From a virus (lineage: Duplodnaviria > Heunggongvirae > Uroviricota > Caudoviricetes): a stretch of 64,000 bases of DNA. Under the pieces are notes generated by a model that saw only the letters and a list, made by a program, of their open reading frames with translations, did no database searches and had not been told where the DNA came from. A program made the position numbers and the translations under genes. The stretch lies in the IMG/VR virus record IMGVR_UViG_3300048058_000019; one strand, written 5' to 3'. The stretch's first letter is position 1, and every line of letters starts with the position of its first letter. This document shows positions 1,709 through 64,000 of this stretch, piece by piece.

Positions 1709-2458
1709 TCACTGAGTGATGAACCTCTTATGAATAGACATCACGGTTTTCTGAGCTAGATGATAGTCTGAATTCTTAGGAAGGTCAGTTCCTTCCGCCA
1801 GCTGAAAAATCCGCTTGTCTTCATCCTCGATCCACTTGAGGAATTCATCGCGGCTGAACTTGCCGCGCTTAACGGCTTTGATCTCTTCACGAATAGCTTT
1901 GTCAGGACGAACAACTAGTTCTCCCGTAAGGAAGAGCGTTTCTGCCATCTTCAAGAGACGGTAAGCATTGGCGGCGTGTTTTGTGTTGTAGCCATATTTC
2001 GCAATCAACAGCTTACCCTTAGCACCACTCTTTGCAGTGCTGTTACCCTTGATACGCTGGATATCACCCTTAGCAAAACCGCCGAGAGTCTTCCTAAGAT
2101 GCTTACCCAGAAAGCTCTTCCGTATCGCCTTGAGCTCGTCCCAAGCCCAATGCGGGTGATCACAATCCGGCCAGCAACGGACTTCAACGTCCTCTGGATA
2201 GAAAAGCATTTCCAATTGGAGCGGAGACCCTCTAAGGCAGAGCTTTACAAAATGTCGTAGCTCGTAACATTGTAAATCAATCGGGGCCTCTTCGGTGTAG
2301 GCTTCAACGTTCTCGAGTCCGTAGATTTGGGACGGTTGAGCTAGGAACACCCCGCGATAATCAAGGTCGCTTTCGGGAGTCCGCGTGGCATATGCAGACG
2401 AACCCGCTTGAACCATGTAGATCTGTTGGGAATTCCAGGGACCGTCATTCTTGAACAT
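1709..2458 (-). CDS. Pol-beta-superfamily nucleotidyltransferase (predicted)
   Basis: GSSAYATRTPESDLDYRGVF matches the GS-x(9-13)-D-x-D minimal NTase motif. Start trimmed to ATG 2458 (MFKNDGPW), which has a GAAGGAAAC RBS; the track start at 2494 would overlap the upstream gene by 50 nt. Confidence 0.5.
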   Translation of the reverse strand: MFKNDGPWNSQQIYMVQAGSSAYATRTPESDLDYRGVFLAQPSQIYGLENVEAYTEEAPIDLQCYELRHFVKLCLRGSPLQLEMLFYPEDVEVRCWPDCDHPHWAWDELKAIRKSFLGKHLRKTLGGFAKGDIQRIKGNSTAKSGAKGKLLIAKYGYNTKHAANAYRLLKMAETLFLTGELVVRPDKAIREEIKAVKRGKFSRDEFLKWIEDEDKRIFQLAEGTDLPKNSDYHLAQKTVMSIHKRFITQ

Positions 2459-3539
2459 TCGTTGTTTCCTTCGGAGTTTCCTTCGGAATTTCAATCACCG
2501 TTTCTACAAAAGGCTGTTGTAGAAGCGCAATTACCTCATCGATCCTTTTTACATACAGGTCGTTCTTTTTGAAGATTTGAGCATGCTTAGCATCATATTC
2601 TTCGTTTGCTTCCTTAGCCTTTTTGCGCCAATAATAAGATTTATATTTCTTACCAGGAAGTCTAATCGGCTTATCGGTCTCCTCATGGTTTTCGAGGCGG
2701 TAATTGCGGTCAATAGTATAGGACGATTTCTTAGAGCGAAGAGAGGCTATCAACTGCTTTTTAACTCTCTTAACCATCTCGTCGTGGTTGACGATGGGGA
2801 CTTCATACTCCCGAGAGTTCCTGGTCGTCCCCATAACCTTATGGGTCAGAGCCCTGATCTCATCACTGTTGGGTTGAAAAACGGGAGTAACATGGACTCT
2901 CATCTTATTTGAAGAGTATTGTTCCGTCTCATCATCGATGACAGGACCTTTTATTGTGAAACAGAGCTTAATCTTGTCGGTTTCACTTACTCCTCTCTCT
3001 TCGCTTTTATTACGCACGATGGTGAGATTTACGTCTTCCCAGAATTTCTTAGAATACTCTGCTAAGATCTTGACAGTTGATCCTTCATTTTTCTTCCTAG
3101 CAGCGTGGGTAGGACAAAAATGCCTCCGACCAATCTTCTCGAGACAGAGTTTATGTGTTGAAACGATGCACTCATCGTAATCGCAAGATGCTACAGGATT
3201 GGACAACTTCTGGCCGCAGGCTCCACAGTCGGGAGCGTGATTAGGGCAATATGAATTATACCAACCCTGATCATCATACATCTCAATGACACAGTCGGTA
3301 TGTTGAGCGGTAGTATTAGGACAGTTTTCGCACTCACCCTCATCGTCTTCAGATACGGGTTTGTTGCAAACAGTGCACTTGAATTTTTGTGGAATGTGTG
3401 TGTTACAATACGTCCCATCCCTCGTCTCAGTAATACAAATTTTGTGTTGACGATTCTTCTGCGGACACTTCTGACACTCATCGTCAGATGAATCTCGAGA
3501 CTTAATGGGTTCTGCACAGACGAAACAGATGCTGTTCAT
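2445..3539 (-). CDS. modular Cys-rich zinc-finger protein, family member A (three tandem CxxC..CxxCP..H..C..YC..H modules plus a conserved C-terminal domain)
   Basis: 364-aa ORF. Three repeats of the module C-x2-C-x(8-12)-C-x-x-CP-x(4-6)-H-x2-C-x(~10)-YC-x2-H, then ILAEYSKKFWEDVNLT..., which is shared with 3913-4524, 4524-5153 and 27691-28239. Confidence 0.6.
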   Translation of the reverse strand: MNSICFVCAEPIKSRDSSDDECQKCPQKNRQHKICITETRDGTYCNTHIPQKFKCTVCNKPVSEDDEGECENCPNTTAQHTDCVIEMYDDQGWYNSYCPNHAPDCGACGQKLSNPVASCDYDECIVSTHKLCLEKIGRRHFCPTHAARKKNEGSTVKILAEYSKKFWEDVNLTIVRNKSEERGVSETDKIKLCFTIKGPVIDDETEQYSSNKMRVHVTPVFQPNSDEIRALTHKVMGTTRNSREYEVPIVNHDEMVKRVKKQLIASLRSKKSSYTIDRNYRLENHEETDKPIRLPGKKYKSYYWRKKAKEANEEYDAKHAQIFKKNDLYVKRIDEVIALLQQPFVETVIEIPKETPKETTNVQE

Positions 3540-3542
3540 TAT

Positions 3543-3935
3543 TCACCTACAAAAACGATCAAGTGCCTTCTTCAAAAAGGGTTTGAGATCCTTCTGGCAC
3601 TTTTCACAGAGTTCAATACCCCATGTAGCAACGGCCACTACTTCAACTTCCTTAGAACCGCACCTTTCACAGGGCTTATGCCAGCCCTTCTCAATAGCGG
3701 AACGCATATCTATGTCAGCTCCACCATCGTCAGCTGGGAAATCAACACTTGAAGAGTAGCGCCAATCATGGATGTTGGCTTTGCGAAGCGCAGCTCCGAG
3801 AGCTGTAGACCCTCTTGTATCGGCTTTGAAGCTGAGCTTCTTACCATCTGCGAGGTCGCAGCCTACTTTTCCTCTAGTAACGCTGATGAAGGGGCCGATT
3901 GCTGCTATGGTTTCATTTTTCTTCTGCCGGGTCAT
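3543..3935 (-). CDS. hypothetical protein with C-terminal zinc ribbon (130 aa)
   Basis: ORF ending in CERCGSKEVEVVAVATWGIELCEKC. Confidence 0.5.
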   Translation of the reverse strand: MTRQKKNETIAAIGPFISVTRGKVGCDLADGKKLSFKADTRGSTALGAALRKANIHDWRYSSSVDFPADDGGADIDMRSAIEKGWHKPCERCGSKEVEVVAVATWGIELCEKCQKDLKPFLKKALDRFCR

Positions 3936-4524
3936 TCCCGAGTTCCTTCAATTTAGTTGTAACTGCATCCATCTTAGCCATATTAATTTGATGATGTTCG
4001 ATCTTGTCCTCGATCTCTTTCTTGTAGCGGTTAACTGCAGCAGTAAATGCGGCCTTCTTCGCTGCTAGCGAAGGTAGCAATTCTTTTCGTATTGCTCTAA
4101 GCGCTGATTTATGGTCGAAGACGGATGCTTCAAAAACCCGAGTCTTCTTTTTCGAGAGACCTTCAACCCTGTGTCTGATAGCAATAAGCTCTTTCTTATC
4201 ACCTTCCGACTTAATGGGTTCGACAGTAACGTTCAATTGTTGATCGAATACGTTGACTGAGATTGAGTTGCCACTCATCGTTGCTTCGAGTCCAACGTCT
4301 TTCCAGAACTTAAGTGCATAGCCTTCTATGATGGCTGCAAGTTCCTTTGCTTCTTTGCGAGCTGCAAAGTGCTCGGGGCAGTAACGTTCTTCGTAGTAAC
4401 CACTTCTTCCAGATCTTTTGGAACATTTTCTATGTAAGTCACGCTCACAATAACGGTGATTGCACGAAGTCTCTTCTCCCTTAGGGATAACAAGCTTACA
4501 ATAGTCGCACGTGACAGTCTTCAT
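3913..4524 (-). CDS. modular Cys-rich zinc-finger protein, family member B
   Basis: N-terminus CDYCK..CNHRYC..CPEH, then IEGYALKFWKDVGLEATMSGNSISVNVFDQQLNVTVEPI, homologous to ADYAKKMWDDVGFTGAVNDEGYVSAKVGPLDINIKPEY of the next gene. Confidence 0.6.
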   Translation of the reverse strand: MKTVTCDYCKLVIPKGEETSCNHRYCERDLHRKCSKRSGRSGYYEERYCPEHFAARKEAKELAAIIEGYALKFWKDVGLEATMSGNSISVNVFDQQLNVTVEPIKSEGDKKELIAIRHRVEGLSKKKTRVFEASVFDHKSALRAIRKELLPSLAAKKAAFTAAVNRYKKEIEDKIEHHQINMAKMDAVTTKLKELGNDPAEEK

Positions 4525-5153
4525 TATTCCGTCTCCTCATGCTTTTCCTTCTTCTTCGTGGAGCGATAGTCATCGTCCAAAGGAGGAAGGGTACCACCCA
4601 AATTAGCCATTACCTGCTCAATGATGACATCCAGATCCGCAACCTTTTCATCCATCTTCTTCTTCTGGATGGTGATCGAGGATTTGGTCGAACGAAGTGA
4701 CCTGACAATGGCCCCTTGAAGCTGCTTTACCACATCATCATGTGAATGAATGTTAGCAGCGAATTTTCGTTCTTTCTCGGCCAGACCTTCAACCACTAGA
4801 GTGAGCTTCGTTAGATTCTCCTCGTTCTTATCATATTCAGGCTTAATATTAATGTCAAGCGGGCCTACCTTAGCCGAGACGTAGCCTTCATCGTTGACTG
4901 CCCCTGTGAAGCCCACGTCATCCCACATCTTTTTGGCATAATCAGCGATAATTTGACCGTTCCTACCTCGGATAGCGTGATTGCTACAATACTTCCTTTT
5001 GAAGATGGTCTCAAGACATTCTTTGTGGAAATTTTGGCCTCGTGGGCACTCGCAACAGTTGAGTTCGGTTCCACCATAACCGTAGTAAGATCCGTTCTCG
5101 ATGTCAGCGCCGATTTGCTTCTGGCAAGTATCGCAAAAGAGTCGTAAAGGCAT
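4524..5153 (-). CDS. modular Cys-rich zinc-finger protein, family member C
   Basis: CDTC..CCECP..H..C..YC..H module plus the conserved ADYAKKMWDDVGF domain. ATGA-type junction with the previous gene at 4524. Confidence 0.6.
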   Translation of the reverse strand: MPLRLFCDTCQKQIGADIENGSYYGYGGTELNCCECPRGQNFHKECLETIFKRKYCSNHAIRGRNGQIIADYAKKMWDDVGFTGAVNDEGYVSAKVGPLDINIKPEYDKNEENLTKLTLVVEGLAEKERKFAANIHSHDDVVKQLQGAIVRSLRSTKSSITIQKKKMDEKVADLDVIIEQVMANLGGTLPPLDDDYRSTKKKEKHEETE

Positions 5154-7358: not shown

Positions 7359-7586
7359 TTAAATACGATCCTCATTGTTCATATCGCGGCGTTCGAAAAT
7401 CATATCTAGTACGTAGGCTAGCATCTCACCAAGATCGCCGTCGCCACCCGTTCGGAAATCAAGAGAAAGATTGCAATACTCCATATCAATCTCCATGACT
7501 TCTTTCAGAAGTTTCACACTTTCAAGGTGATGAGGAATTCCCTGTTCCCAGCGTTTACCGGGATCGAGATTCCAATTATGACTCAT
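7359..7586 (-). CDS. hypothetical small acidic protein (75 aa)
   Basis: Minus-strand ORF in the tiling path. Confidence 0.35.
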   Translation of the reverse strand: MSHNWNLDPGKRWEQGIPHHLESVKLLKEVMEIDMEYCNLSLDFRTGGDGDLGEMLAYVLDMIFERRDMNNEDRI

Positions 7587-8874
7587 TTAATGCTCCTCCA
7601 GTTTTATCAGACACAATGAAATGATCGTTAATGAACTTAACGACCTTATCGGAATCTACGTCCTTATGGAACGCGATGTTAGGACCATGTCCCTCCAAGT
7701 ATGAGCAAAAGATCCCTGGTTGGATTTCCTTCATACTCGAGGCGGTGTTATTGCCGCACTCTACTGAGCCGCATTCGAAATGTTTTTGTGGAGCGGAAGG
7801 GAGCACATTGCTCACCCTTAAAGGTGAGTGAAAATGAACGATGGAGTGTACTTTATCACCCAGGGTTTTATAAATCGCTTGTTGGGTGTGTTCTCCAACC
7901 GAGGGACGACCTCCCATCGCAGTGATATATTTATCAGTCACATCCAGGATCTTGGCCATTCCAACTCTGAGAACCTGATTGTGGTCTTCTTTACGGCAAG
8001 AGGTGATAGTCTTGAATTCCTTACCCCAAACCTTACAACCAAAATGACCAGACGTCTTACCAAGGAAGGGTTTATAGGCTCTTGCGGCAATCAGGTGGCG
8101 CAATACTGGAAGGAAATTGCTAGGGATCGCGTTCTCGTTAGCCAAAAATTGAGGATCAATCCGTAATCCATCAACGACCTTAGTTCGTACGAAGTGGAGT
8201 TTCGTACGAGCAGCGATCATTTCAGAGAATGTCTTGACCGCTTCCTCTCTTGAGGAGGCGTGGTAGGGAAACTCTTCCGGAGTGATTACAACATTGTGGT
8301 GACTACGAATGTCGTTAGCAAAGACGAGATTCGCACTGCTTCTCTTGAGGAGTTTTAACCCATGTTCATAAGTTTCTTCAGGAGTGAGACCCGCAGTGGT
8401 CTTAAAGGCCGCGAGGAAGATATCCTTGCGGATCATCCGGATCATGGAGAGAATCTTCTCTGCTGGTCGGAGCATGAGCGTATACTTCTCCTTCGAGGAG
8501 AGTCTGGGACTGTCTTTACCGAAGAAGGTATCCCGCTTTCCAGAGAGAGCTTCCGGCTCAAAATCACAAACCGCCGCAGCCATTACGATACATCTGGTGT
8601 CTTTCTGAGACACAAGGTATCGTATGACTTTAGTAAGATCTTCGTTAGTCTCGAGACGGTCGACCCCAGCCTTAGATAGAACTTCCCTCGCCGGAGAAAG
8701 AAGATTCTGATCTGCCATTGTGGTAAAGAGCCGAATCACCTGAGTATCAGGCCCAGGATCGACACCAGCAAGAATCTGCTTACCAATAGTTCCATAAGCA
8801 GGAGCGCAGAGTGAGAAATGTGGTGCAATGTGCACCATTGTCCCACCTGCGATGATGTAGAATTTCTTTACCAC
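7576..8874 (-). CDS. PPCS (CoaB/DFP)-like N-terminal domain fused to a class II aldolase/adducin-like C-terminal domain
   Basis: N-terminus IIAGGTMVHIAPHFSLCAPAYGTIG and MAAAVCDF resemble the CoaB motifs [24 protein letters not shown] and AAAVADY. C-terminus RPSVGEHTQQAIYKTLGDKVHSIVHFHSP resembles the FucA-type PSSEWRFHMAAY..DANAVVHNH metal-site motif. Confidence 0.5.
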   Translation of the reverse strand: MVKKFYIIAGGTMVHIAPHFSLCAPAYGTIGKQILAGVDPGPDTQVIRLFTTMADQNLLSPAREVLSKAGVDRLETNEDLTKVIRYLVSQKDTRCIVMAAAVCDFEPEALSGKRDTFFGKDSPRLSSKEKYTLMLRPAEKILSMIRMIRKDIFLAAFKTTAGLTPEETYEHGLKLLKRSSANLVFANDIRSHHNVVITPEEFPYHASSREEAVKTFSEMIAARTKLHFVRTKVVDGLRIDPQFLANENAIPSNFLPVLRHLIAARAYKPFLGKTSGHFGCKVWGKEFKTITSCRKEDHNQVLRVGMAKILDVTDKYITAMGGRPSVGEHTQQAIYKTLGDKVHSIVHFHSPLRVSNVLPSAPQKHFECGSVECGNNTASSMKEIQPGIFCSYLEGHGPNIAFHKDVDSDKVVKFINDHFIVSDKTGGALNES

Positions 8875-10517: not shown

Positions 10518-11489
10518 TTACTTCTTGTCCTCAGGGATCTGAATCAAGGGCATGACGTTGCCGTCCCCGCCCATCATGTAGCGAGGAAGGTCGCCCGACC
10601 ACTTCTCCAACCACTGACGCTGAATCAGAGCGGGAGTCAGCGAAGCGGCAACTCGCTCGTTGTATTCCGCTTGCGCTTCACCCTTGATCTTCAGAGCATC
10701 AGCTTCACCCTTAGCAGCCTCTCGAGCGGCATCGGCCTGACCTTTAGCGGTGGCCGCAGCGATTTCAGCCTGCTTCTCAGCACTCTGGAGCTGGTAGACC
10801 TTCTCCAAAGCCTGCTGTTCCTGAACCTGCTTCTTCTTAATGGCCGCTTCGTACTCGTCATCAAACCGAACGTCGGCAATCGAGATTTCGGTCAGCTGAA
10901 CGCCGTACTTCACCAGCCACTTGGCCAGGTTATCCTGGACCTTACTCTTCATCTGAGGACGTTTGACCAGAATCTCAGATGCCTTGTAGAGGGCCGTCTC
11001 GGCCTTCAAGACTTCCTGAGCCGCCGGGATGATAATGCGATCAGCATATTCGATACCAATCGTATCGAAAATCTTCGGGGCGGAATCAGCCAACATCTTG
11101 AAGTTCAGCGTCATATCAACTTCGATAGTCTGCTGATCGGCGGTGGCGCTTCCGTAGGTGGCGGTGTGCTTGTTGATCTGGCGGTCCATGGATTCGATAT
11201 CGGCCCAAGGCTTCACGAAGCTAACACCCGAATTGAGGGGGCGTTCCTGAACCTTACCGAACTCGACCACGACACCGACCTGACCAGGATCCACGATGCG
11301 AATCGTGGAATACGCCAGCATACCAAACAAGGCGACGAAAGCCAGAACGAAGCATGCGTTCCCACCGAACGCGAACGTGCCGTCGCTACCGGCGCGCTTA
11401 GACTCGTTGGTCTTACCGAGCGACTTGAGAACCTTGCCCAATATGAACAAGGCCGCGAACAAGACAACAGCAACAATCAGTTTACCCAT
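10518..11489 (-). CDS. SPFH/band-7 (prohibitin/HflK/C-like) membrane protein
   Basis: N-terminal TM helix KLIVAVVLFAALFILG, SPFH-like core, and a long Ala/Glu/Lys/Gln-rich coiled-coil C-terminus. GGAGGAAAAATG RBS. Confidence 0.8.
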   Translation of the reverse strand: MGKLIVAVVLFAALFILGKVLKSLGKTNESKRAGSDGTFAFGGNACFVLAFVALFGMLAYSTIRIVDPGQVGVVVEFGKVQERPLNSGVSFVKPWADIESMDRQINKHTATYGSATADQQTIEVDMTLNFKMLADSAPKIFDTIGIEYADRIIIPAAQEVLKAETALYKASEILVKRPQMKSKVQDNLAKWLVKYGVQLTEISIADVRFDDEYEAAIKKKQVQEQQALEKVYQLQSAEKQAEIAAATAKGQADAAREAAKGEADALKIKGEAQAEYNERVAASLTPALIQRQWLEKWSGDLPRYMMGGDGNVMPLIQIPEDKK

Positions 11490-11992
11490 TTTTCCTCCAA
11501 AATACCATTAGACTTCTTCAACTCAACCAGTTTGGATTTCCATTTCTTCACTTTCATCCGATCAAAGCTCTCTACCTCTACGCCATGTTTCATCAACTCC
11601 TTAAAGCGACGGTGTGCACTTCTAACCACCATAAATGGAATACGTCCGTATACACCCCTACTTCCCCTCTTCTTCTGGTTCTTAAGTAGCTGATTCCAGG
11701 GCGTGTCGAAGACGATAGCCTCTACTTCGTAGCCTTGACTCTTGGCCATCCTCGCCCAGCGCCGTCTGGTCTTCCCATCAACGAACTGAGCATCAACAAC
11801 GAAAGGTTCCTTGCTAGTAAAGAGCTCGAGGGCCATCTGACTTGCGTGTTTCCACGCAAGATTCGCCTTGCCGAAGGTCCATCTTCCCGCAACATAATCA
11901 TCGGGCGAAACACAGGCCAAATGCGAGAGATACTTCTTCCGATAGGTAGACTTCCCTGAACCGGTTGGCCCGATGAGCATGTAAAGGATCAT
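11477..11992 (-). CDS. P-loop polynucleotide-kinase-like protein (T4 Pnk kinase-domain-like, kinase only)
   Basis: MILYMLIGPTGSGKSTYRKKYL resembles the T4 Pnk N-terminus [22 protein letters not shown] (Walker A). At 171 aa there is no room for the HAD phosphatase domain. Confidence 0.65.
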   Translation of the reverse strand: MILYMLIGPTGSGKSTYRKKYLSHLACVSPDDYVAGRWTFGKANLAWKHASQMALELFTSKEPFVVDAQFVDGKTRRRWARMAKSQGYEVEAIVFDTPWNQLLKNQKKRGSRGVYGRIPFMVVRSAHRRFKELMKHGVEVESFDRMKVKKWKSKLVELKKSNGILEEKWVN

Positions 11993-11993
11993 A

Positions 11994-12299
11994 TTACCCT
12001 CTAATTAAGGAAGGACGAATCCCTCGTTTCCGGCGATCTTCTCGGTGCAATTTTCTGTAATCTTCGATGCCTAGCGCAACGTAGTGTTCAATCTTCTCAA
12101 AAAATTCCGGATCTTCAGCTTTAACAGGACCCTTGGGGGTTAATACTTTGTTCTTGAATACCTGAAGAATGTGAACCTGACCTCCTTTTACGGAGGCATA
12201 CCACATTCGCGAGTCATCACCCATGACTAGATTCTCATGCCAAGACTTTTTAGATTCGTTGGCCCAATCTGTGATCAAGTCATTAAGACTAGGTGACAC
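11994..12299 (-). CDS. hypothetical protein, DPxFF-motif family member (101 aa)
   Basis: Contains KAEDPEFFEKIEHYVALG. Confidence 0.45.
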   Translation of the reverse strand: MSPSLNDLITDWANESKKSWHENLVMGDDSRMWYASVKGGQVHILQVFKNKVLTPKGPVKAEDPEFFEKIEHYVALGIEDYRKLHREDRRKRGIRPSLIRG

Positions 12300-12828
12300 T
12301 TTTCCTCTCCTTCAACCGCCTGTCGTACAGAACAATATTTACAGCCGCTGCCAGATTTGCGCAATGCTTGGTGGGAATTACGACAAATCTGTGACAGTGC
12401 ATAACGTGGACCTTCTCTAGTGAGCCGTCTTCAGGACCAAAGACGTACACCGCATTCTCGGGGTGTATGAAGTCCGGAAGACTCTCTGCGTTCGGACGGA
12501 TCTCAACAGCAACCGGCGTTATACCCTTAGGGAAGTGATCAAAGGGATAGTCGAATTGAACCATTTCAACATCTCGATATCCTTTCATCCTCTCCTCGCG
12601 AGGAAGACGTTCACCCTTCTCAAGGTCGAGAGATACCCTGTTGCCGGTCCACCACACCTGCTTCGCATCGAAGTTCGACGCGGCGCGGACCGCCGCACCA
12701 ACGTTATGTGCATACTTAGGGTTGATTAAAATTACGGACGGTGTGGTACCCACCGGAGGTACATTCTTACCCCAGATTGCTTTTTTGAACCTTCCATCTA
12801 GAGGAGCGAGGTCTTCTTCACGCACCAA
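12289..12828 (-). CDS. SpoU/TrmH-family (SPOUT) RNA 2'-O-methyltransferase
   Basis: NVGAAVRAA (SPOUT motif 1) and VYVFGPEDGSL (motif 2 region); the size, 179 aa, is typical of minimal TrmL/SpoU enzymes. Confidence 0.7.
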   Translation of the reverse strand: MVREEDLAPLDGRFKKAIWGKNVPPVGTTPSVILINPKYAHNVGAAVRAASNFDAKQVWWTGNRVSLDLEKGERLPREERMKGYRDVEMVQFDYPFDHFPKGITPVAVEIRPNAESLPDFIHPENAVYVFGPEDGSLEKVHVMHCHRFVVIPTKHCANLAAAVNIVLYDRRLKERKSVT

Positions 12829-14179: not shown

Positions 14180-14586
14180 TACTTCTTCTCTTTCACAAGA
14201 CGCTTGATAGTCTTGTCGAGTACCGCAAGAACTTGGCGCTTAGAGCGCCCCTTGTGATCGTTATATGATACAACGATGTCAAGGTTCGACGCCAGCTTAA
14301 AAGCTTTGTATCCTTGACTTACGATGGTGTCTGCCAGAGCCTTCATTGGCGTCTCAACCGTCTTATGCTTACCAACGACCTTCTCCACAGCTCCAGCTAA
14401 ACAAAAGGAAAAAGCTTCCTTCTCGAAGCTCTCACAAATTCGCCCATCCTCAGTATAGGATGAGTAATCCTGTGCCCAGCGACCCCGCCCCTCAATGAGC
14501 TTGCGGGTCTTTTTTAGGATAGCGGAATTCTTCACAGCATCCTCTGTGCGATAACCTGTCCCACCGACTCCGCCAAGGCCTCGCAA
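14179..14586 (-). CDS. hypothetical protein (135 aa)
   Basis: Minus-strand ORF; shares a 1-nt junction with the previous gene. Confidence 0.4.
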   Translation of the reverse strand: MRGLGGVGGTGYRTEDAVKNSAILKKTRKLIEGRGRWAQDYSSYTEDGRICESFEKEAFSFCLAGAVEKVVGKHKTVETPMKALADTIVSQGYKAFKLASNLDIVVSYNDHKGRSKRQVLAVLDKTIKRLVKEKK

Positions 14587-15119
14587 TCATCGCCGGTCTC
14601 GATGAGTTGCTTTGATTTTACTCTGAACTTCCAGTGACCACTCTGACTTCCTTCAATCCTGAAGGAGCGCTCAGGACCGAAAAGTAGCTCAGTTATAGGC
14701 GATAGTTCGCTGTGAGCTTCCTTACGATGGATGATCCTGGCATACACCTGAGCCCTGATCTTGGGATCGTGGAGCTTCTTCTTGTCAACTTCAGAGAGTA
14801 CGAAATCGTCCTCAGTCACAAACTTCATCTCATCAATTTTGGATGAAGTCCCAATCTGTTTGGCGATCTCGGTCTGGATTTCGAACTCCTCCTCCGTGAC
14901 GTCTTCGTAACCCTTCGAGTACTTCTCGTCTGTCTTCCTGTCAATAAAATCGTCACGGGAGTAGGAATCAGAGAACTTTTTGACGGTAGGTTTCCCACCC
15001 TTTGTCCCCAAGCGACCGTGACGGGTTGTAACGACGTACTCGCCGTCTTCGTGCTCATACATCCAGAACTTGTTGCTTCCTTCCTCGGAACAGATTAAAA
15101 TCTTCTTCTGCATAAACAC
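14532..15119 (-). CDS. WGR-domain protein
   Basis: SNKFWMYEHEDGEYVVTTRHGRLGTKGGKP fits the WGR signature (SNKFY...W-G-R-I/L-G..G). Confidence 0.55.
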   Translation of the reverse strand: MFMQKKILICSEEGSNKFWMYEHEDGEYVVTTRHGRLGTKGGKPTVKKFSDSYSRDDFIDRKTDEKYSKGYEDVTEEEFEIQTEIAKQIGTSSKIDEMKFVTEDDFVLSEVDKKKLHDPKIRAQVYARIIHRKEAHSELSPITELLFGPERSFRIEGSQSGHWKFRVKSKQLIETGDDCEALAESVGQVIAQRML

Positions 15120-18628: not shown

Positions 18629-18831
18629 TCTTCCACCTTGTGCTTTTCACACACGAATTTGGGATGGTCGGCTAGCTTCTTGGGCTTAGTTGCCCATCCA
18701 CCGACCTCATCAGGATGGGGCTCGCTGTGATAGCGGCTTGTACATTCAGCAATTGCTATCTCACCACAAGTCTTCCCATTGAGGAGAGCTTGACCACAGT
18801 ACTTCCATCGTTCATAAGTCGACACATTCAC
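18625..18831 (-). CDS. hypothetical Cys/His-containing protein (68 aa)
   Basis: Minus-strand ORF. Confidence 0.35.
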   Translation of the reverse strand: MNVSTYERWKYCGQALLNGKTCGEIAIAECTSRYHSEPHPDEVGGWATKPKKLADHPKFVCEKHKVEE

Positions 18832-19223
18832 TCCTGAGGAGTAAGAGATCCGTTTTTGAGGAACTTGGATTTCATCCGGGACACATTCTCTTTGATCTGT
18901 TCACCCAGAACCTCGGAGATGTTAGGAACCGCCAGACTGATCTCTCGCATCCCTCTACCGCGCAGATGATAGTGGAGTTTTTCTCCCTTGACCCGAATAT
19001 CTCCAAGAATATGGGTATTGGGAGAAGGGTATCCAGCGTCTGCAGTGGCTCCTCTGACCTTAAGACTCACCGCAAAAGGATCGATACCAGCGTGTTTGAA
19101 AGCATTTGCGATGATATCCGACAATAAAGCCAGTCCTACCGGGGAATAGTAGGAAAAATTTCCATAATAACTATTCCCCTGCTTATAGTGAACATAGAAG
19201 TCGTCATTAGCAAGTGGTTTCAC
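18828..19223 (-). CDS. hypothetical protein; paralogue of 29312-29719
   Basis: Shared segments: DFYVHYKQ/DFYVQKKW, AFKHAGIDPFAV/AFKKAGIDPNEV, VKGEKLHYHLRGRG/VEGEKLKFQARGRK, RMKSKFLKN/NMKSKYLKK. Confidence 0.5.
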   Translation of the reverse strand: MKPLANDDFYVHYKQGNSYYGNFSYYSPVGLALLSDIIANAFKHAGIDPFAVSLKVRGATADAGYPSPNTHILGDIRVKGEKLHYHLRGRGMREISLAVPNISEVLGEQIKENVSRMKSKFLKNGSLTPQE

Positions 19224-20659: not shown

Positions 20660-21898
20660 TTACAAGCTGATCAGGATCTTATCCCCGAAAGGAGGCTTGG
20701 CGTCCTCGGTGAGAAGCCACACAACCGGCGTCGGTGGAACCTCAGGAGGCCAACGTCCAACCTGCCCGTCAGTGAGAACCACAAGGATGTTGTTGAACAA
20801 GTGGTTTTCCTTGAGATAGGCGAACAGGTGAACAACATTTGTTCCACAACCACCCTTGGCCGGGATCTTTCTCCAGTCGCCCCGGTGATATCTCTTTGCG
20901 GGCATCTGGATCTTAGCGTCCCAAAGCACGAGGGAGATCTTGAAACGGTGGCTTGCAGCTTCCACTTCCGTGAAGAGTTGTTCGAGCATTTTGACGTTGC
21001 TGGCCACCGAACTGGAGACGTCGACCGCGAGGAGGAGCGGCACGGACGCGTGGTTGGAACGTCCAGCAAAGCCGAAGAGGTCAATGCGGCGGTTGCGCCG
21101 AGCGAAGGTCTTACGCTTGCCGCCCAGCTGACGACCGCAGAACTGACGGAACAAATACTTCCAGTTGACCTTCGGATCTTGAAGCTGCTCAATAGCATCT
21201 TTCAGGTGGCCTGGAGCCGAACCAGCTTTCTTGCTGGCCTGCTCAACCATGTCCTTGACGATCTGGCGGGTCTCTTCCTCACCGATTTCCGACTCTTCCC
21301 AGATGTCGTGATTGTCAACCGTCGTGCCCGAAATGACCTTCTGTCCAGGCTTCGGTTTCTTCTTGCCGCTGGCGAGATCACCACCCGGCATGTCGATGAA
21401 GATTTTCTTCTGGTTCTTGTCGAGCCAGTCGTAGACTTCCTCGTAGGTCGAGTTATTCTCGGGCGAGAGATCGCCCTCGGGGAAGTAAAGGGGCGGAGCT
21501 TCCGTCGTCTTGTTTCCGCCTTCATCGAAGACCGGAATCATCGGCAGGTTTTCGATGTTGGGCTTACTCTCGGGGCCATTCACGCACATATCCGCAGCCG
21601 TGTTGGCCATTTCGTGGTCTCGCGCACCATGACGAGTGATGTGCAGGCGAACGATATGCTCAATTTCGTGCTGAATTACCGCCATCAGAGCGTCAATCTC
21701 TCCAATGGCATCAACAAAAGGTCCTGACCATCGACACTCGACCCGGCCTCCGGCAATCATACGGACGCCCATGGTCCCAACCTTGTCGTCGCGCTTCCAC
21801 TCCATGAGGGATGCCATCGTGCCATACCAAACGTGCATGGTCACCAGACGGCATCGCGCCTTCATGATGAGGTCTTCAGCGCTGTCGTACATACCCAT
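20660..21898 (-). CDS. vWA-domain protein with N-terminal HExxH putative metallopeptidase domain (CoxE/DUF2201-like partner of a MoxR ATPase)
   Basis: HEIEHIVRLH (HExxH) sits in the N-terminal half; the C-terminal half has vWA-like features (ILVVLTDGQ). It lies immediately downstream of the AAA+ ATPase. Confidence 0.7.
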   Translation of the reverse strand: MGMYDSAEDLIMKARCRLVTMHVWYGTMASLMEWKRDDKVGTMGVRMIAGGRVECRWSGPFVDAIGEIDALMAVIQHEIEHIVRLHITRHGARDHEMANTAADMCVNGPESKPNIENLPMIPVFDEGGNKTTEAPPLYFPEGDLSPENNSTYEEVYDWLDKNQKKIFIDMPGGDLASGKKKPKPGQKVISGTTVDNHDIWEESEIGEEETRQIVKDMVEQASKKAGSAPGHLKDAIEQLQDPKVNWKYLFRQFCGRQLGGKRKTFARRNRRIDLFGFAGRSNHASVPLLLAVDVSSSVASNVKMLEQLFTEVEAASHRFKISLVLWDAKIQMPAKRYHRGDWRKIPAKGGCGTNVVHLFAYLKENHLFNNILVVLTDGQVGRWPPEVPPTPVVWLLTEDAKPPFGDKILISL

Positions 21899-22675: not shown

Positions 22676-24034
22676 TTAGCTCCCGTAAGAGACCTTCGAC
22701 ATGAGCTTCTGCAGCTCGGGGCGAGCGCTGATGGCAGCGATCCAGGAATTGGTCTTATCGGGCTTGTACCGAGCGGCCATCTTGGCGAGATGGACGTTGG
22801 AAAGCACCGCACCACCGAGGTTGACCGTTTCCTTCTCGACCAGAGTGCGGCCGAGCATGACCGCGAGGTCGCGCTCTGCGCGCTTGGCCACCAACTCCAT
22901 GAAGTCCAGCGTGTTGGTGATCAGCTTCTCCCGATCCTTACCCTTCACACCCTTGGTGTCCGCGAAGCGGTCCTTCGCGTGGGAGGCCACGCCCCAGACC
23001 AGACCGACCATCTGGTTCCGGTTGAAGCCCTTGAGCTTCGCGTCGATGGCCTTGAGACCCTTGTCCAGCACGTCACCCGGGGTGACTTCGACGCTGAACC
23101 GCTCGAACGCGTTGGCGAGATCGCGACCCACGATCCCGGCGAGGACTTCGCGGATTGCTTCCTTCGGATAGTTGCGGCGCTCGACCTCTTGAGCCACGCG
23201 GCCTACGAATTCCCAAGAGCGCGGGGACGACATGACAGTGAAACCGAGGTCACCGTCGATCTTGCCCATCAAGTTGTTCTTGTCGTAGGTCACGAACTGC
23301 AGGACCTTGTCGCCGACAGGACCCTTGAGCTTCTGAGTCATGTAATCCGACCAGTCGGCCACATAACCCTCGTCCACCGAGACGACCACGTGGCAGAACC
23401 TGTCGAGGAACGCCGGGTCGTTAAAGGTGTTGACGTTGTAACCGGTCTGGTAGTTTCCAGCGCAGGTCACACTCCAGCCCGAAGGCATGGTGTACCGACC
23501 GAGCTGACGGTCCAGAACCAGCTGGAAGCAGGCCTGAAGCACGTCGTCGTCGGCGCGGTTGAGCTCGTCCAGGAAGAGGATTCCTTCGTGGAGGATGATG
23601 ACGATTCCGTCATCCTTATCCGTCTTGGGCTGGTTCTTGTGACCATTCGGACAAACCGTGGGGATCTCCTTGGTGAGGGCATAACTGCCGTTCTCACCGA
23701 AGGTTCCGTGCCAACGGCCTCGAGGCCCGTTCTTCACAGGCGCGTCGGCGCATTCCAAACAGAGGAACTCTCCGTGCGGGAGATCCTCAGGCGGGCAGTA
23801 AATCGTGAGGCCGTTCTGTCGGTCGGGGAGACCGCGCAGATCGGACGATTCGATCTGACTGGCACGGAAATCCACAAACCCCCAAGGCCGCTTCGTGCCC
23901 GAATGCTTCGGGGCCTCTTGACACAGCTGCCTTACGAGGGAGCTCTTACCCAAGCCTCGGTGGCCCCACATGAACATGGCCACACCGGAATTGCGACAGA
24001 GCCGAGTCGCATGCTTGGTCATCGTAACGTTCAT
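22676..24034 (-). CDS. MoxR/AAA_5-like AAA+ ATPase with a Cys-rich insertion
   Basis: Walker A GHRGLGKSSLV; Walker B ILFLDELNRAD. About 90 aa between them contain CPPEDLPHGEFLCLECADAP...CPNGH. Confidence 0.75.
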   Translation of the reverse strand: MNVTMTKHATRLCRNSGVAMFMWGHRGLGKSSLVRQLCQEAPKHSGTKRPWGFVDFRASQIESSDLRGLPDRQNGLTIYCPPEDLPHGEFLCLECADAPVKNGPRGRWHGTFGENGSYALTKEIPTVCPNGHKNQPKTDKDDGIVIILHEGILFLDELNRADDDVLQACFQLVLDRQLGRYTMPSGWSVTCAGNYQTGYNVNTFNDPAFLDRFCHVVVSVDEGYVADWSDYMTQKLKGPVGDKVLQFVTYDKNNLMGKIDGDLGFTVMSSPRSWEFVGRVAQEVERRNYPKEAIREVLAGIVGRDLANAFERFSVEVTPGDVLDKGLKAIDAKLKGFNRNQMVGLVWGVASHAKDRFADTKGVKGKDREKLITNTLDFMELVAKRAERDLAVMLGRTLVEKETVNLGGAVLSNVHLAKMAARYKPDKTNSWIAAISARPELQKLMSKVSYGS

Positions 24035-26519: not shown

Positions 26520-27204
26520 CCAGCTTCTTGAAGATCCGATCTCTCAGATCTCGGGCAACTGCCGCTCGACGGACGTCGTGAGACTCGTCAGCGTCATATT
26601 CTCCATGCTTGTAAAGCCGGTTTAGGTTCCGACCGGAAAACGCCATACGGACTTTGCCCGCTTCCTTCTTGTCCATGATGTGGAAGATACCCTCGATGGC
26701 ACGTCCCGACATCTCAGCAAAATCCATGCGCACTTTCTCGTTCATCTCCCCGGGTTTGAAGACCTCTCCGTAGTGACGGAGAGCTTCACCCAGAACCTCG
26801 GACTCTTCTAGGTTCACGAAGAGGGAGACCAAGGAGTTAACAGCGGGCATTACGGGCTCCGCCCCAGGAATGATGATCTTAGGAGTCGAGGGGACCGCAG
26901 CCGGAGCCGCAGTTGGCACAGGAGCAGGGGCCACAGGCGGCGGCTTGACACCCATCCGCTCGGCCATCTCCTCGAAGGAGAAGATGTTCTTACCAGTTTT
27001 GGTCTGCCACTTCTCGTCGGCAGCCTTCGGGTCTTTCTCGTCGTAGCCCGGTTCATCCTTAGTAGAAGTCCGGATGACAACCTCGCGGCTACAATTACAG
27101 GTAATGTGCCGCTCGATCATCTTCTTTCCATTCTCTTCGATTTCCGCGCAGGGCCAATCGAAGATTCGGTGGTTGATACCACACGTGCAGAAGATCTTCA
27201 TCAC
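26503..27204 (-). CDS. hypothetical protein with N-terminal Cys cluster (233 aa)
   Basis: MMKIFCTCGINHRIFDWPC...CNCSREV at the N-terminus, then a Pro/Ala-rich linker. Confidence 0.5.
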   Translation of the reverse strand: MMKIFCTCGINHRIFDWPCAEIEENGKKMIERHITCNCSREVVIRTSTKDEPGYDEKDPKAADEKWQTKTGKNIFSFEEMAERMGVKPPPVAPAPVPTAAPAAVPSTPKIIIPGAEPVMPAVNSLVSLFVNLEESEVLGEALRHYGEVFKPGEMNEKVRMDFAEMSGRAIEGIFHIMDKKEAGKVRMAFSGRNLNRLYKHGEYDADESHDVRRAAVARDLRDRIFKKLDDAGA

Positions 27205-27713
27205 TCCTCCATATTGAGTCTAATTTGACTCACGTAGGTTAGAACAGCAGAATCCGCCCGACAATGATCCGGAATTTTACTCAGTAAGGTTTCAGTGTTT
27301 GAACGATAACCTTTTGTGAATTTCACGGGCTTAAGCTTGAAATCTCGCGTATTATCACATCGATCAGCGAGTTTAAGTAAGACGCCATCTCGCGATAGCC
27401 GAGCAAAACGCGCGAAGTATTCAGCCTCTTTTTCAGCCTTAGGGAGAGACTTAACCTTAGTCACTCCCATGACCAGCTCAGTCATGTCGCTCCCGAAGTA
27501 GAGTCGGATTGTACCGGAAGTAACATCGGTGTCTTCAATCACATCATGAAGTACACCTGCAGTCGCCAACTTAATATTGCCGGTACGAGCAAAGAGATCA
27601 TCCGCAACCCGTAAAGGGTGGAGGATATAAGGTTCGTCAACGAACTTGCGACGTTGTCCATCGTGGGCCTTGGTCGCAAGGAGGATTGCTCTATTGTAGT
27701 TCTGAAGCCACAT
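27201..27713 (-). CDS. RelA/SpoT-family HD-domain (p)ppGpp hydrolase (small alarmone hydrolase)
   Basis: KAHDGQRRKFVDEPYILHPLRVA and AGVLHDVIEDTDV match the SpoT/Mesh1 HD hydrolase motifs. Confidence 0.8.
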   Translation of the reverse strand: MWLQNYNRAILLATKAHDGQRRKFVDEPYILHPLRVADDLFARTGNIKLATAGVLHDVIEDTDVTSGTIRLYFGSDMTELVMGVTKVKSLPKAEKEAEYFARFARLSRDGVLLKLADRCDNTRDFKLKPVKFTKGYRSNTETLLSKIPDHCRADSAVLTYVSQIRLNMEE

Positions 27714-29148: not shown

Positions 29149-29312
29149 GATTCTCTAATACAGCCTTCACACTGGCAGCGGACGCTAGAAAGATCACCGC
29201 AGATTTCATAACCCTGCTCAGCTACCCAATGTTCACAGCGACCGCACTCCCATGCGGGAGTGCCCTGCTTCTCTGCCTTGAACATCTCGGACCCACAGTA
29301 CTTACAAAGCAT
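29145..29312 (-). CDS. tiny zinc-finger ORF (MLCKYCGSEMFKAEKQGTPAWECGRCEHWVAEQGYEICGDLSSVRCQCEGCIRES)
   Basis: 55 aa. TAATG junction with 29312-29719 and ATGA junction with 28999-29148. Confidence 0.35.
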   Translation of the reverse strand: MLCKYCGSEMFKAEKQGTPAWECGRCEHWVAEQGYEICGDLSSVRCQCEGCIRES

Positions 29313-29719
29313 TATTCGGCTCCCTTCTTCTCTTTCTTAAGATACTTCGACTTCATGTTCTTCGTGCGCTCAACAATCAGCGCCGCGATTCGATCAATGA
29401 GATCAGGAACAGCTAGAGGAATGACCTCAAATTCCTGATGCCCGTACCCGTACTTCCTTCCCCTCGCCTGGAACTTGAGTTTCTCTCCTTCCACATGGAC
29501 TTCGCTGATAAGAGAACTCATGGGAGAGGGCCACCGGAAAGATAATCTACTCCCTCTATAAGTGACATACCCTGTGCTGACCGCAACCGCAACCTCGTTT
29601 GGATCAATACCAGCCTTCTTAAAGGCTTCTAGGAAGGTCTCACTGAGAATCATCATCCCAGTAACAGAATACCATTTCTTCTGAACGTAGAAGTCACCAA
29701 CATCAACTGAGGATCTCAT
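29312..29719 (-). CDS. hypothetical protein; paralogue of 18828-19223
   Basis: See 18828-19223. Confidence 0.5.
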   Translation of the reverse strand: MRSSVDVGDFYVQKKWYSVTGMMILSETFLEAFKKAGIDPNEVAVAVSTGYVTYRGSRLSFRWPSPMSSLISEVHVEGEKLKFQARGRKYGYGHQEFEVIPLAVPDLIDRIAALIVERTKNMKSKYLKKEKKGAE

Positions 29720-30192
29720 TTAACACCCTTCGTCGCGGCCCACTTCCGTATCAGCTTTTGCGTTTTCTTCCGTTCTCTCTTTGCCTTATCGGTTTCAACT
29801 AGTTCCCGCAACTTTTTGTCATAGACATCTTTCTTCTTGAGACTCTTAACAAGCTTGGTGTCAGTCTCGAACAGCGTTCTTAAAAGACCAAGAAGGTCAG
29901 ATGTCGGTTCAGCAATGTTCATGTAATAAACCCATCCATCTTTATTCGTTGACAGGTCTTGCTTGCGCGAGAAGATGACCTCAACCTCATTTTGAACGAA
30001 CACGTGGATTGCAGGGATAAAGTATCCTCCCCGAATCTGGAGATGAGGTTGGATATAAGGTGTCGAACCGCCGTACAAGGACACCTTAAATCCCTCGTTA
30101 ATGAGCCACACCTTTAGTTGGCCTAGCGTGGCAACTTTCTCTTGATGGGTCATTTCGCAAACTGACGCTTGGCCAGCTCCTCCTTGTACCAC
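29716..30192 (-). CDS. hypothetical protein (158 aa)
   Basis: Minus-strand ORF with a 4-nt overlap with the next gene. Confidence 0.5.
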   Translation of the reverse strand: MVQGGAGQASVCEMTHQEKVATLGQLKVWLINEGFKVSLYGGSTPYIQPHLQIRGGYFIPAIHVFVQNEVEVIFSRKQDLSTNKDGWVYYMNIAEPTSDLLGLLRTLFETDTKLVKSLKKKDVYDKKLRELVETDKAKRERKKTQKLIRKWAATKGVK

Positions 30193-31121
30193 TCAGGAAG
30201 GCCAGCAGTCGCTCCACGCAAGATCTTGGGAAGCGCCCACTTTAGAAGCGCCTCAGCGATGGGCGAGTTGGGACCCTTCGCCTCTTCCTCAGTGAGATCC
30301 TTGTGGACTTCCTTGATAAGCTTGCCGATGTCCTTCGGAGCATTTTCAAGCTCACCACGTTCCTCGAGGTGCATTACTGCCTTGCTCCAGCGAGCAGGGG
30401 TTTGATACGACATGATGAGCTTCTGAAGGATATCACCCTGCTTGGGGTTGGATTCCTTCCACTCGACCCCGTGCTTCTCCTTGAACTCCTCGCTGACGAA
30501 CTTCCCCATCATGGCCTTGCCATCCGAACCAAAACGGTTGTAGTTCTTGACGACAACACCTTCGATCTTCTCTTCGCCTAGGACACTCATGGTCTCGTCC
30601 ACGAGCTTCCGGAAGACGTCGTAGTTATCGATCTTGCCACGGAAGAAACAAGGGACGCACTCGAGGCCGATCCGATCGGCTTCAGCCTTCTTCTCTTCGG
30701 GAGAGAGATACTGCTCGTACGAGGGGCTGATATCGAAGATGATCAGATGGTCTTTGGGGACCCGGCCGTAAGCCCGAGTGTGATGCTTGGGCTTCGACAG
30801 GTATTCTGCCCGGTAGGTCCAGCCCAGCTTGAGATTGGGTTGAAGCTTTAGGATGGTTTCTACCGCCTTGATGAAGAGCTTCTCAGGGGCAATCAGGTTG
30901 ATCTGGGCACCCTTCGAACGGGCACGCAGCTCGGGACCCTCACCAAAATCGAAGACACCAAAGCTGAATTGGGACCCGTCCACTTTCTCTTCGAGGATCA
31001 CTTCCTCCAGGAAAAGCTCTGTGATCGCATGGTGACCCAGAGCGTGGATCTTCGTGTATGAATGATACGACGTTGCGGTTACAGGCTTCTTTGCAACCAG
31101 GGGCTTCTCTTCAGGAACCAT
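30150..31121 (-). CDS. ATP-dependent polynucleotide ligase, RNA-ligase-like (nucleotidyltransferase domain, no OB domain)
   Basis: Motif I EEKVDGSQFSF (KxDG); motif III HLIIFDI; motif IV KIEGVVVKN; motif V MMGKFVSEEFK. Start trimmed to the ATG at 31121 (MVPEEKPLV), which has a GAGGGAAAG RBS. Confidence 0.6.
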   Translation of the reverse strand: MVPEEKPLVAKKPVTATSYHSYTKIHALGHHAITELFLEEVILEEKVDGSQFSFGVFDFGEGPELRARSKGAQINLIAPEKLFIKAVETILKLQPNLKLGWTYRAEYLSKPKHHTRAYGRVPKDHLIIFDISPSYEQYLSPEEKKAEADRIGLECVPCFFRGKIDNYDVFRKLVDETMSVLGEEKIEGVVVKNYNRFGSDGKAMMGKFVSEEFKEKHGVEWKESNPKQGDILQKLIMSYQTPARWSKAVMHLEERGELENAPKDIGKLIKEVHKDLTEEEAKGPNSPIAEALLKWALPKILRGATAGLPEWYKEELAKRQFAK

Positions 31122-44906: not shown

Positions 44907-44983
<77 letters not shown>

Positions 44984-63907: not shown

Positions 63908-64000
63908 AAAAGCATCACCGTGCTCGGGATGGGCCTCCTCGAGGGTGATGATCTCACCGAGGGGGATTCCGTGACACGTTGTGTCGTTGGTGACACGAAC

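Follow-up and report, generated by a model that had tools for sequence, protein, structure and literature searches.

Does a phage polynucleotide kinase encoded next but one to an RNA methyltransferase work with it as a single RNA-repair device, or are the two enzymes independent? The question is raised by positions 11477-12828 of a 64,000-nucleotide (nt) stretch of viral DNA, called the window in what follows, from a Caudoviricetes genome (IMG/VR record IMGVR_UViG_3300048058_000019). The window belongs to a phage-like metagenome contig of the Joint Genome Institute (JGI), Ga0589155_0000001, whose 384,188 bp make it of jumbo-phage size. The locus has three genes, all on the minus strand: a kinase gene (11477-11992; 171 amino acids (aa), ATG start), an open reading frame (ORF) that we call ORF101 (11994-12299; 101 aa, GTG start), and between ORF101 and the next upstream gene a SpoU methyltransferase gene (12289-12828; 179 aa from a TTG start, called by JGI as 178 aa from the GTG at 12825).

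The explanation that, taken whole, we consider fairly probable has two parts: a stand-alone Pnk-type kinase within a dispersed RNA-repair repertoire, and an independent tRNA methyltransferase of the SpoU class, with the activities of both enzymes predicted. The kinase would use a nucleoside triphosphate to phosphorylate the 5′-OH end left by transesterifying nucleases, and an ATP-dependent ligase could then reseal the phosphorylated break; healing of the 3′ end would most likely fall to the HD phosphoesterase domain of a CCA-adding enzyme, acting in trans. The kinase would be one piece of an end-repair repertoire spread over the genome (RlaP, RNA ligase, CCA enzyme) rather than of a compact cassette. 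The methyltransferase would be an independent 2′-O-ribose enzyme, with tRNA the most likely substrate, and would have landed as variable cargo between a WGR-domain gene and the kinase gene in this phage only.

The kinase

By sequence, profile and predicted fold, the kinase is a stand-alone 5′-OH polynucleotide kinase of the T4 Pnk / bacterial Pnkp clade, an activity that is predicted. Its sole Pfam match is to AAA_33 (1.1e-18; 68 bits, cut-off 27), the zeta toxin family falling under threshold (E 0.014). Among PHROG profiles it matches phrog_505, ‘polynucleotide kinase’ (7.5e-13), covering profile positions 4-150 of 295. NCBIfam places the kinase region of bacter_Pnkp first (2.9e-10), followed by eukaryotic PNK and PSTK. 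When solved structures were searched by sequence, T4 Pnk (1ly1, 1.3e-9) came first and the CthPnkp kinase (4gp7) second, and no other match was significant.

The predicted fold likewise points to polynucleotide kinases. A model from AlphaFold2 (AF2), with a mean predicted local distance difference test score (pLDDT) of 81, was compared with the PDB using Foldseek. Ranks 1-20 are all CthPnk or T4 Pnk (E ~2e-8; template modelling (TM) score 0.67-0.75), with the CthPnkp kinase domain in first place (4gp6; E 1.8e-8, TM 0.75). Fungal and mammalian polynucleotide kinases come below these, then, lower still, AvrRxo1, zeta toxin and PSTK; 6-phosphofructo-2-kinase is also found among the lower matches.

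Catalytic residues were compared using an alignment of the window kinase with six close homologues (seven members). The P-loop reads G8-P-T-G-S-G-K14-S15-T16, with G8, G11, G13, K14 and T16 invariant. Six kinase residues are essential in T4 Pnk: Lys15, Ser16, Asp35, Arg38, Asp85 and Arg126 (PMC2831316). Lys15 and Ser16 hold the β-phosphate of the NTP, Asp35 is the general base at the 5′-OH (Asp38 in CthPnk), Asp85 is structural, and Arg126 in the lid also contacts the NTP β-phosphate. Five of these six are conserved here (T4 residue in parentheses): K14 (K15), S15/T (S16), D31 (D35), D67 (D85) and R109 (R126). S29-P30-D31, aligned with T4 D35 of the DDY motif, is invariant in all seven members; so are D67 (in VVDAQF) and R109 (in KKRG), the latter aligned with T4 R126 by HMMER. 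The nucleobase-pocket residues P119 and V122, whose T4 counterparts are P132 and V135, are likewise invariant.

The window kinase thus resembles T4 Pnkp/PseT (1LY1, 1LTQ) in its P-loop kinase fold (TM 0.68-0.76), in its conserved catalytic and base-pocket residues, and in belonging to a phage genome with an RNA ligase. Unlike T4 Pnkp, it is without the C-terminal HAD 3′-phosphatase, has Val at the position of Arg38, and carries an extra C-terminal tail of ~35 aa, beta-rich and modelled as a small beta sheet with low confidence. No 3′-phosphatase domain (the C-terminal DxDxT acylphosphatase) was found in the 171-aa protein.

A sequence-only reading of this DNA had called the kinase Pnk-like from the resemblance of its N-terminus to that of T4 Pnk. 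The call stands, with polynucleotide kinases leading the PDB matches by sequence and by fold, and the resemblance exceeds a generic P-loop: tblastn matched 781 T4-like phages at ~29% identity over residues 3-134, and the strongest segment is 65-134. The reading was also right that the 3′-phosphatase domain is missing, homologues being of similar size (154-190 aa), and the profile that it had named as contrary to its call, that of an adenylate, shikimate or gluconate kinase or a zeta toxin, is not seen.

Kinase relatives and fusions

The subfamily is tiny: a profile search of 1.84 billion representatives returned six below 1e-30. The next relatives in the same search are mostly stand-alone proteins of 150-175 aa, so that a Pnk without phosphatase is common rather than odd. 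We considered whether the window gene might be truncated or frameshifted, and rejected this, as its relatives have the same length and most nearby family members are stand-alone at 150-175 aa.

The multidomain relatives are informative about function. The closest, P0136 (640 aa; gene at L164 8001-9923, on a phage-like contig), joins a CCA-adding nucleotidyltransferase, an RNA-binding domain and an HD domain to a C-terminal kinase. The window kinase shares 36% identity with the kinase part of P0136, and a CCA-adding enzyme encoded in the window (41131-42510, minus strand) shares 29% over 390 residues (4e-42) with its CCA/HD part. Other relatives have the architectures HD+kinase, kinase+calcineurin-like phosphoesterase and full-length Pnkp. 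All the domains to which related kinases are fused serve in end healing or tRNA repair. In addition, the uncharacterised family phrog_6931 has matches in two window proteins, the kinase and the HD part of the CCA enzyme. P0136 is itself a candidate single-chain tRNA end-repair enzyme.

The window CCA enzyme has the Pfam domains PolyA_pol (2.1e-19), PolyA_pol_RNAbd and HD, and matches the NCBIfam ‘multifunctional CCA addition/repair protein’ at 5.4e-61; its nucleotidyltransferase (GGYVRD...DVDIE) and HD motifs are intact. By the Rosetta-stone argument, the P0136 fusion suggests that the window kinase and CCA/HD enzyme act on the same substrate, with the HD domain replacing the 3′-end healing done in T4 by the HAD domain. 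Yakunin and colleagues reportedly found, in 2004, that the HD domain of the Escherichia coli CCA enzyme has 2′,3′-cyclic phosphodiesterase and phosphatase activities. In the Runella slithyformis HD-Pnk, whose HD+kinase architecture recurs among relatives of the window kinase, the HD domain can serve as 3′ healer (PMC6097658). The window differs from CthPnkp and HD-Pnk in that its kinase is a separate polypeptide, with the candidate HD partner in the CCA enzyme 29 kb off, and in having neither Hen1 nor a Pnkp-type ligase domain. Among 46 further window ORFs, no stand-alone phosphoesterase or hidden phosphatase was found by Pfam (only two ClpS-like proteins), leaving two candidate 3′-phosphoesterases: the CCA enzyme, through its HD domain, and the product of a LigD_N-like gene that lies beyond the window. 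Together these comparisons point to tRNA end repair as the role of the kinase and to the HD domain as its likely 3′-healing partner. The CCA-HD-kinase fusion leads to the prediction that the HD domain of the CCA enzyme of this phage is the missing 3′ healer, with its tRNA repair split across proteins.

A kinase acting on a small molecule or other non-polynucleotide substrate, as zeta toxins, AvrRxo1 and nicotinamide riboside kinases do, was also considered. AAA_33 is a broad family, the lower part of the fold list holds zeta toxin, AvrRxo1 and 6-phosphofructo-2-kinase, and the T4 Arg38 is not conserved in place. We nevertheless think such a substrate extremely unlikely: every top match by sequence, profile and fold is a polynucleotide kinase, the general-base Asp, the lid Arg and the pocket residues P119/V122 are invariant, and the fusion partners are RNA-end enzymes.

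A megablast search with 15 kb of window sequence as query gave zero matches among 50,697 phage records, and hence no annotated close relative. Related contigs with kinases 46-54% identical to that of the window share with it a syntenic block: AAA ATPase, DUF2201, ..., WGR, ..., kinase, ..., RlaP. The window gene for the WGR-domain protein is at 14532-15119 (minus strand; Pfam WGR 7.3e-10), and its homologues lie upstream of the kinase gene in L001 and L004; an RlaP homologue, 63% identical, lies downstream of it in L001/L002. In one related locus, genes for PTH2 and NADAR are directly upstream of the WGR-kinase pair. The stretch from WGR to kinase holds two genes in the relatives versus seven in the window, and the methyltransferase gene, ORF101 and the SPFH gene that follows the kinase were not found in the four related kinase loci. 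We regard the kinase gene as conserved in this giant-phage lineage.

RNA-repair repertoire of the window

Besides the CCA enzyme, which is 29 kb upstream of the kinase gene, the window encodes further RNA-end enzymes. An ATP-dependent RNA ligase (30150-31211, minus strand; Pfam RNA_ligase PF09414 1e-12; phrog_548 ‘RNA ligase’ 1.3e-23), 18 kb upstream, is the candidate sealing enzyme. Its motif I lysine lies in EEKVDGSQF (the KxDG motif); a sequence search of the PDB gave no significant match and hence no Rnl1, Rnl2 or Rnl3 subtype. An RlaP nucleotidyltransferase (1709-2494, minus strand; Pfam RlaP 2.1e-11; phrog_388 1.6e-44) is 9 kb downstream. RlaP enzymes add one or two nucleotides at damaged RNA 3′ ends and help restore the function of repaired tRNA (PMC12776372). 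The only tRNA gene in the window, found by ARAGORN, is a tRNA-Met (CAT) at 44907-44983, minus strand (Rfam tRNA 74.7 bits).

In the jumbo-phage repair set described by Iyer et al. (2021), an ATP-dependent RNA ligase, a polynucleotide kinase and a phosphoesterase (HAD, 2H, calcineurin-like, HD or cRec) are accompanied by RlaP, a CCA-adding enzyme and tRNAs (PMC7824862). The window has every component but a dedicated phosphoesterase gene, for which the HD domain would be the substitute. The toolkit is therefore known as a kind: giant phages were already known to be equipped for RNA repair, and the kinase extends that equipment by another stand-alone enzyme of the Pnk type. SPOUT/SpoU methyltransferases go unmentioned in that account (PMC7824862).

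DNA as a possible substrate

The genome also encodes enzymes that work on DNA. A PolX-like gene (56012-56695) and two ATP-dependent DNA ligase-like genes (37288-37914 and 61109-62443) are in the window; a 120-aa LigD_N-type 3′-phosphoesterase is encoded ~7.5 kb beyond window position 64000 (L163 1443-1805), and a NAD-dependent DNA ligase beyond window position 1 (L162 17066-18943). Together these genes suggest a DNA end-processing set.

The kinase might accordingly be proposed to serve mainly in healing 5′-OH ends of DNA, in company with the LigD-type 3′-phosphoesterase, the PolX-like polymerase, the DNA ligases and the WGR protein, a role that we judge rather unlikely as the main one. The best fold matches include T4 Pnk and CthPnkp solved in complex with DNA, the DNA-repair enzyme mammalian PNKP also matches, the WGR-domain gene is a conserved upstream neighbour of the kinase gene, and the PolX-like and DNA ligase-like genes of the window are joined by the LigD_N and NAD-dependent ligase genes just outside it. 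The closest fusion partner of the kinase, however, is a tRNA CCA-adding enzyme, its syntenic neighbour RlaP acts on RNA (PMC12776372), an RNA ligase is present, and PTH2 and NADAR stand upstream of the WGR-kinase pair in one related locus. RNA and DNA roles are not mutually exclusive. We infer RNA rather than DNA as the substrate of the kinase, the HD domain as its 3′ healer and, as set out next, tRNA as the substrate of the methyltransferase.

The methyltransferase

By motifs, profiles and a structural model, the methyltransferase belongs to a distinct subfamily within the SpoU/TrmH class of SPOUT 2′-O-ribose RNA methyltransferases; its probable substrate is tRNA. Its match to Pfam SpoU_methylase is at 1.2e-14 (55.1 bits; cut-off 29.7). 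SpoU motif 1 is N42-V-G-A-A-V-R48, motif 2 F130-G-P-E-D-G135 and motif 3 I151-P152...N158-L159, and the key residues of these motifs are invariant in 50 homologues. Also invariant is an insert specific to the subfamily, R74-L-P-R-E-E-R-M-K-G-Y84. A quartet of Cys and His residues, C145/H146/H155/C156, flanks motif 3; across the 50 homologues both Cys are invariant and both His are kept in ≥90%. The quartet is a candidate metal site, atypical of TrmJ, TrmL and TrmH.

The AF2 model (pLDDT 87) fits all SpoU-class 2′-O-methyltransferases about equally: TARBP1, TrmJ, TrmH, RlmB, AviRb and TrmL are matched at E ~1e-8 and TM 0.6-0.78, identity to solved members being 15-20%. Sequence profiles are more selective. 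When the family profile is used, TrmJ ranks highest, TrmL and TrmH come next, and nothing other than these tRNA enzymes reaches significance; NCBIfam agrees. The NCBIfam scores are far under the cut-offs for orthologues (39.5 versus 167 bits for the TrmJ/YjtD subfamily, 23 versus 350 for archaeal TrmJ), which makes this a separate subfamily. With TrmJ and TrmL, which form Nm32 and Nm34 in tRNA, the window enzyme shares SpoU motifs 1-3, the SPOUT fold and small single-domain size; it is set apart from them by the 15-20% identity, the RLPREERMKGY insert and the C145/H146/H155/C156 quartet.

Homologues form >4100 clusters at 60-75% identity. The subfamily is present in many viral contigs >200 kb and also in Acidobacteriota and Planctomycetota genomes, where the neighbours of its genes are mostly unrelated housekeeping genes. 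Members from large phages and from these bacterial phyla are 60-75% conserved. A defence-island or prophage setting for the bacterial genes was considered and rejected, given these mostly housekeeping neighbours.

tRNA arrays and other neighbourhoods

In viral contigs the methyltransferase gene often lies among tRNA genes, and this is the strongest of its genomic associations. Within 6 kb of it, 35 of the 65 non-redundant viral loci have at least one tRNA or transfer-messenger RNA (tmRNA) gene, 22 have at least three and nine at least ten. Nearly all of these genes (302/306) share the orientation of the methyltransferase gene, and several are ≤30 nt from it. The density of tRNA genes around it is ~0.30/kb, versus 0.016/kb in the window. 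In the viral loci L013-L092, dense co-oriented arrays reach 20 tRNAs in 12 kb (examples are L045 1362-6001, L019 587-12253 and L029 1873-11929), and tmRNA genes are near the methyltransferase homologue in L015, L038, L042 and L064.

Some large viral contigs of the set carry suppressor-type tRNAs (L032 2629-2701, L044 2622-2694, L048 10464-10538, L070 8499-8575, L027 11766-11840), which ARAGORN labels ‘tRNA-Pyl’ when the anticodon is CTA and ‘tRNA-Stop’ when it is TTA. These tRNAs hint at stop-codon reassignment in those phages.

The arrays bear on a further possibility, that the methyltransferase targets rRNA, as do RlmB and the thiostrepton and avilamycin resistance methylases, and tunes host ribosomes in infection. 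The fold search would allow it, matching RlmB, AviRb, Tsr/Nhr and RlmP about as well as the tRNA enzymes. We think it very unlikely, since only TrmJ, TrmL and TrmH are significant by sequence profile, the N-terminal L30e-like RNA-binding domain of the rRNA enzymes (~250 aa) is missing, and the gene is embedded in tRNA arrays of many phages.

Protein-coding neighbours of the homologues are varied, and de novo clustering of them gave no dominant partner. They include MetRS, Thg1, a tRNA-binding domain, an RF-1-like protein, RNase J, RtcB and Tpt1. Of 145 loci centred on a methyltransferase homologue, nine have RtcB encoded ≤6 kb away, and these represent about six independent contexts. Two of the loci resemble repair clusters. 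On a 183-kb viral contig (L015 1834-8673) the order is VWA, exoribonuclease-like, RtcB, Tpt1/KptA, SpoU, a 129-aa ORF and Cpn60. In an Acidobacteriaceae metagenome-assembled genome (L148 1-6823), RlaP-like and Hen1 genes (the latter PF12623, 2.3e-112) face RtcB, a class-I methyltransferase, SpoU and a BCS1-like AAA ATPase. A BCS1-like ATPase gene directly follows SpoU in nine genome loci and is ≤3 genes away in two more (11 in total); in seven viral loci it lies within ~4 kb upstream of SpoU. The tie of the subfamily to tRNA biology and RNA repair is real but facultative.

The most economical reading is that the enzyme is a tRNA 2′-O-methyltransferase carried by large phages with their tRNAs. 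Should its role be confined to maturing phage tRNAs, it adds to the lengthening list of translation genes that large phages carry. A more speculative proposal, to which we give little weight, is that the subfamily serves in counter-defence: it would 2′-O-methylate an anticodon-loop nucleotide of phage or host tRNAs, the loss of that 2′-OH making them immune to transesterifying anticodon nucleases of the host, and would here have been recruited beside the kinase, so that prevention and repair are co-expressed. Shielding of tRNAs from host nucleases would, if true, be a new layer of phage counter-defence. The kinase and the methyltransferase are ordinary members of known enzyme kinds; the subfamily of the latter is itself uncharacterised, and this highly conserved group of SpoU enzymes embedded in tRNA arrays is possibly the more useful result.

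Kinase and methyltransferase as a possible unit

The window is densely packed with genes, nearly all on the minus strand, and the locus is no exception. The start of the methyltransferase gene overlaps the stop of its upstream gene, and its own stop overlaps the start of ORF101 by 11 nt; between ORF101 and the kinase gene there is a single base, and the stop of the kinase gene overlaps by 13 nt the gene of an SPFH/Band-7 membrane protein (10518-11489, minus strand; Pfam Band_7 1.7e-30; phrog_200 4.9e-53). A GGAG-type ribosome-binding site precedes the start of kinase, ORF101 and methyltransferase alike, and no promoter-like or convincing terminator-like signal was found between the three genes. 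Kinase and methyltransferase are real genes, each having a Pfam match above cut-off and conserved homologues. ORF101 is an ORFan: it has no match in Pfam, PHROG or NCBIfam, its sole database match is itself, and it does not clearly resemble the ORFs found upstream of the kinase gene in related phages.

The kinase and methyltransferase genes are probably co-transcribed, yet they are no obligate pair. Their adjacency is specific to this lineage and not conserved: a kinase homologue is found within 6 kb of the methyltransferase homologue in one of the 145 loci.

The strongest form of a functional pairing is a module that heals, seals and methylates in the manner of Pnkp-Hen1, the 2′-O-methyl group at the repaired junction blocking recutting of the tRNA. 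The bacterial Pnkp-Hen1 cassette does offer a conceptual parallel, with kinase and RNA 2′-O-methyltransferase side by side. The overlapping genes, with no promoter or terminator signal between them, favour such a module, as do the occasional repair neighbourhoods of methyltransferase homologues (L015 and L148; RtcB in 9/145 loci) and the methyltransferases of known repair clusters (the Runella cluster, PMC6097658). We nonetheless regard it as quite unlikely. The adjacency is conserved from neither gene's side, and the bacterial homologues of the SpoU gene are mostly among unrelated housekeeping genes. Hen1 has a Rossmann fold and Hen1_L and methylates the 3′-terminal nucleoside ahead of ligation, and its Pnkp partner is trifunctional; the window has neither architecture, its methyltransferase having the SPOUT fold. 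The nearest characterised relatives, TrmJ, TrmL and TrmH, modify internal positions of intact tRNA. To our knowledge, the SpoU-class enzymes characterised so far target internal nucleotides of folded RNAs. Lastly, a true Hen1 stands beside the SpoU gene in L148, which suggests that the SpoU enzyme does not stand in for Hen1 and that the roles are distinct.

Of what the sequence-only reading had proposed for the locus as a whole, the layout is confirmed: three minus-strand ORFs at these positions, with a single small ORF, ORF101, between the kinase and SpoU genes. The RNA ligase, CCA enzyme and tRNA that it had placed elsewhere in the window are likewise there (30150-31211, 41131-42510 and 44907-44983). 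Its RNA-repair toolkit holds as a repertoire, which with RlaP included matches the published jumbo-phage set (PMC7824862), but not as a conserved kinase-SpoU module. That kinase and SpoU form one module did not hold up, as relatives keep the kinase slot without the methyltransferase and the reverse comparison gave one locus in 145; Hen1-type methylation of the junction is likewise unsupported, given the different fold and the internal positions in intact tRNA where the nearest relatives act.

Several observations weigh against a stand-alone RNA-repair kinase beside an independent tRNA methyltransferase. The position of T4 Arg38 is occupied by Val34 in the window kinase (V or I in the family), with K/R37 conserved three residues on. 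In T4, Arg38 binds the acceptor 3′-phosphate; mammalian PNKP is also without a counterpart (PMC2831316), so that its absence is compatible with membership of the Pnk clade, and the replacement may alter acceptor preference rather than abolish function. Since both T4 Pnk and CthPnkp accept DNA in addition to RNA, and the genome has its own DNA-side enzymes, DNA repair stays a real rival or second function. The repair genes are scattered over >40 kb, for which reason we can only infer their cooperation. Functional coupling would be consistent with the tight overlap of the methyltransferase, ORF101 and kinase genes. The methyltransferase gene is 32 kb from the only tRNA gene in the window. As for the tRNA arrays, the density of ~0.02-0.1/kb to be expected is our own estimate from published averages, with no matched random-gene control; jumbo-phage genomes average 4.5-22 tRNAs (PMC7824862). 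The distance-decay of tRNA genes is flat across ±6 kb, which shows high density and is not a control, and a search for SPFH relatives as a neutral control of tRNA proximity retrieved none in viral contigs.

Other genes in the window

Directly upstream of RlaP is a paralogous family without Pfam match (2445-3539, 3913-4524 and 4524-5153), of which at least four paralogues occupy the corresponding position in related contigs (L001 10410-13403). The DUF2201 metallopeptidase/VWA-like gene (20660-21898) and the AAA ATPase gene (22676-24034) form a pair, 67-72% identical in L001.

Burroughs and Aravind reportedly linked, in 2016, a tRNA-like non-coding RNA to SPFH/Band-7 repair modules; we give this link no weight. 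When such an RNA was sought with Rfam at gathering thresholds, only the tRNA-Met was found.

A 170-aa HD_4 protein (27201-27713) matches the RelA/SpoT hydrolase domain TIGR00691 at 6.5e-26 and could be a phage-encoded small alarmone ((p)ppGpp) hydrolase, with homologues near the methyltransferase gene in six viral loci. The two ClpS-like adaptor proteins (33525-33839 and 35511-35810; best Pfam ClpS E 2e-22) are 33-36% identical to what we take to be the sequence of E. coli ClpS. The product of 7576-8874 (432 aa) has an N-terminal part like phosphopantothenate-cysteine ligase (CoaB/DFP; Pfam 3.2e-9, NCBIfam 1.3e-10), which is unusual for a phage. Two ORFs, 18828-19223 and 29312-29719, are paralogous (35-37% identity), and one of them follows the RNA ligase gene at a distance of 431 nt, the ORF 29716-30192 lying in between.

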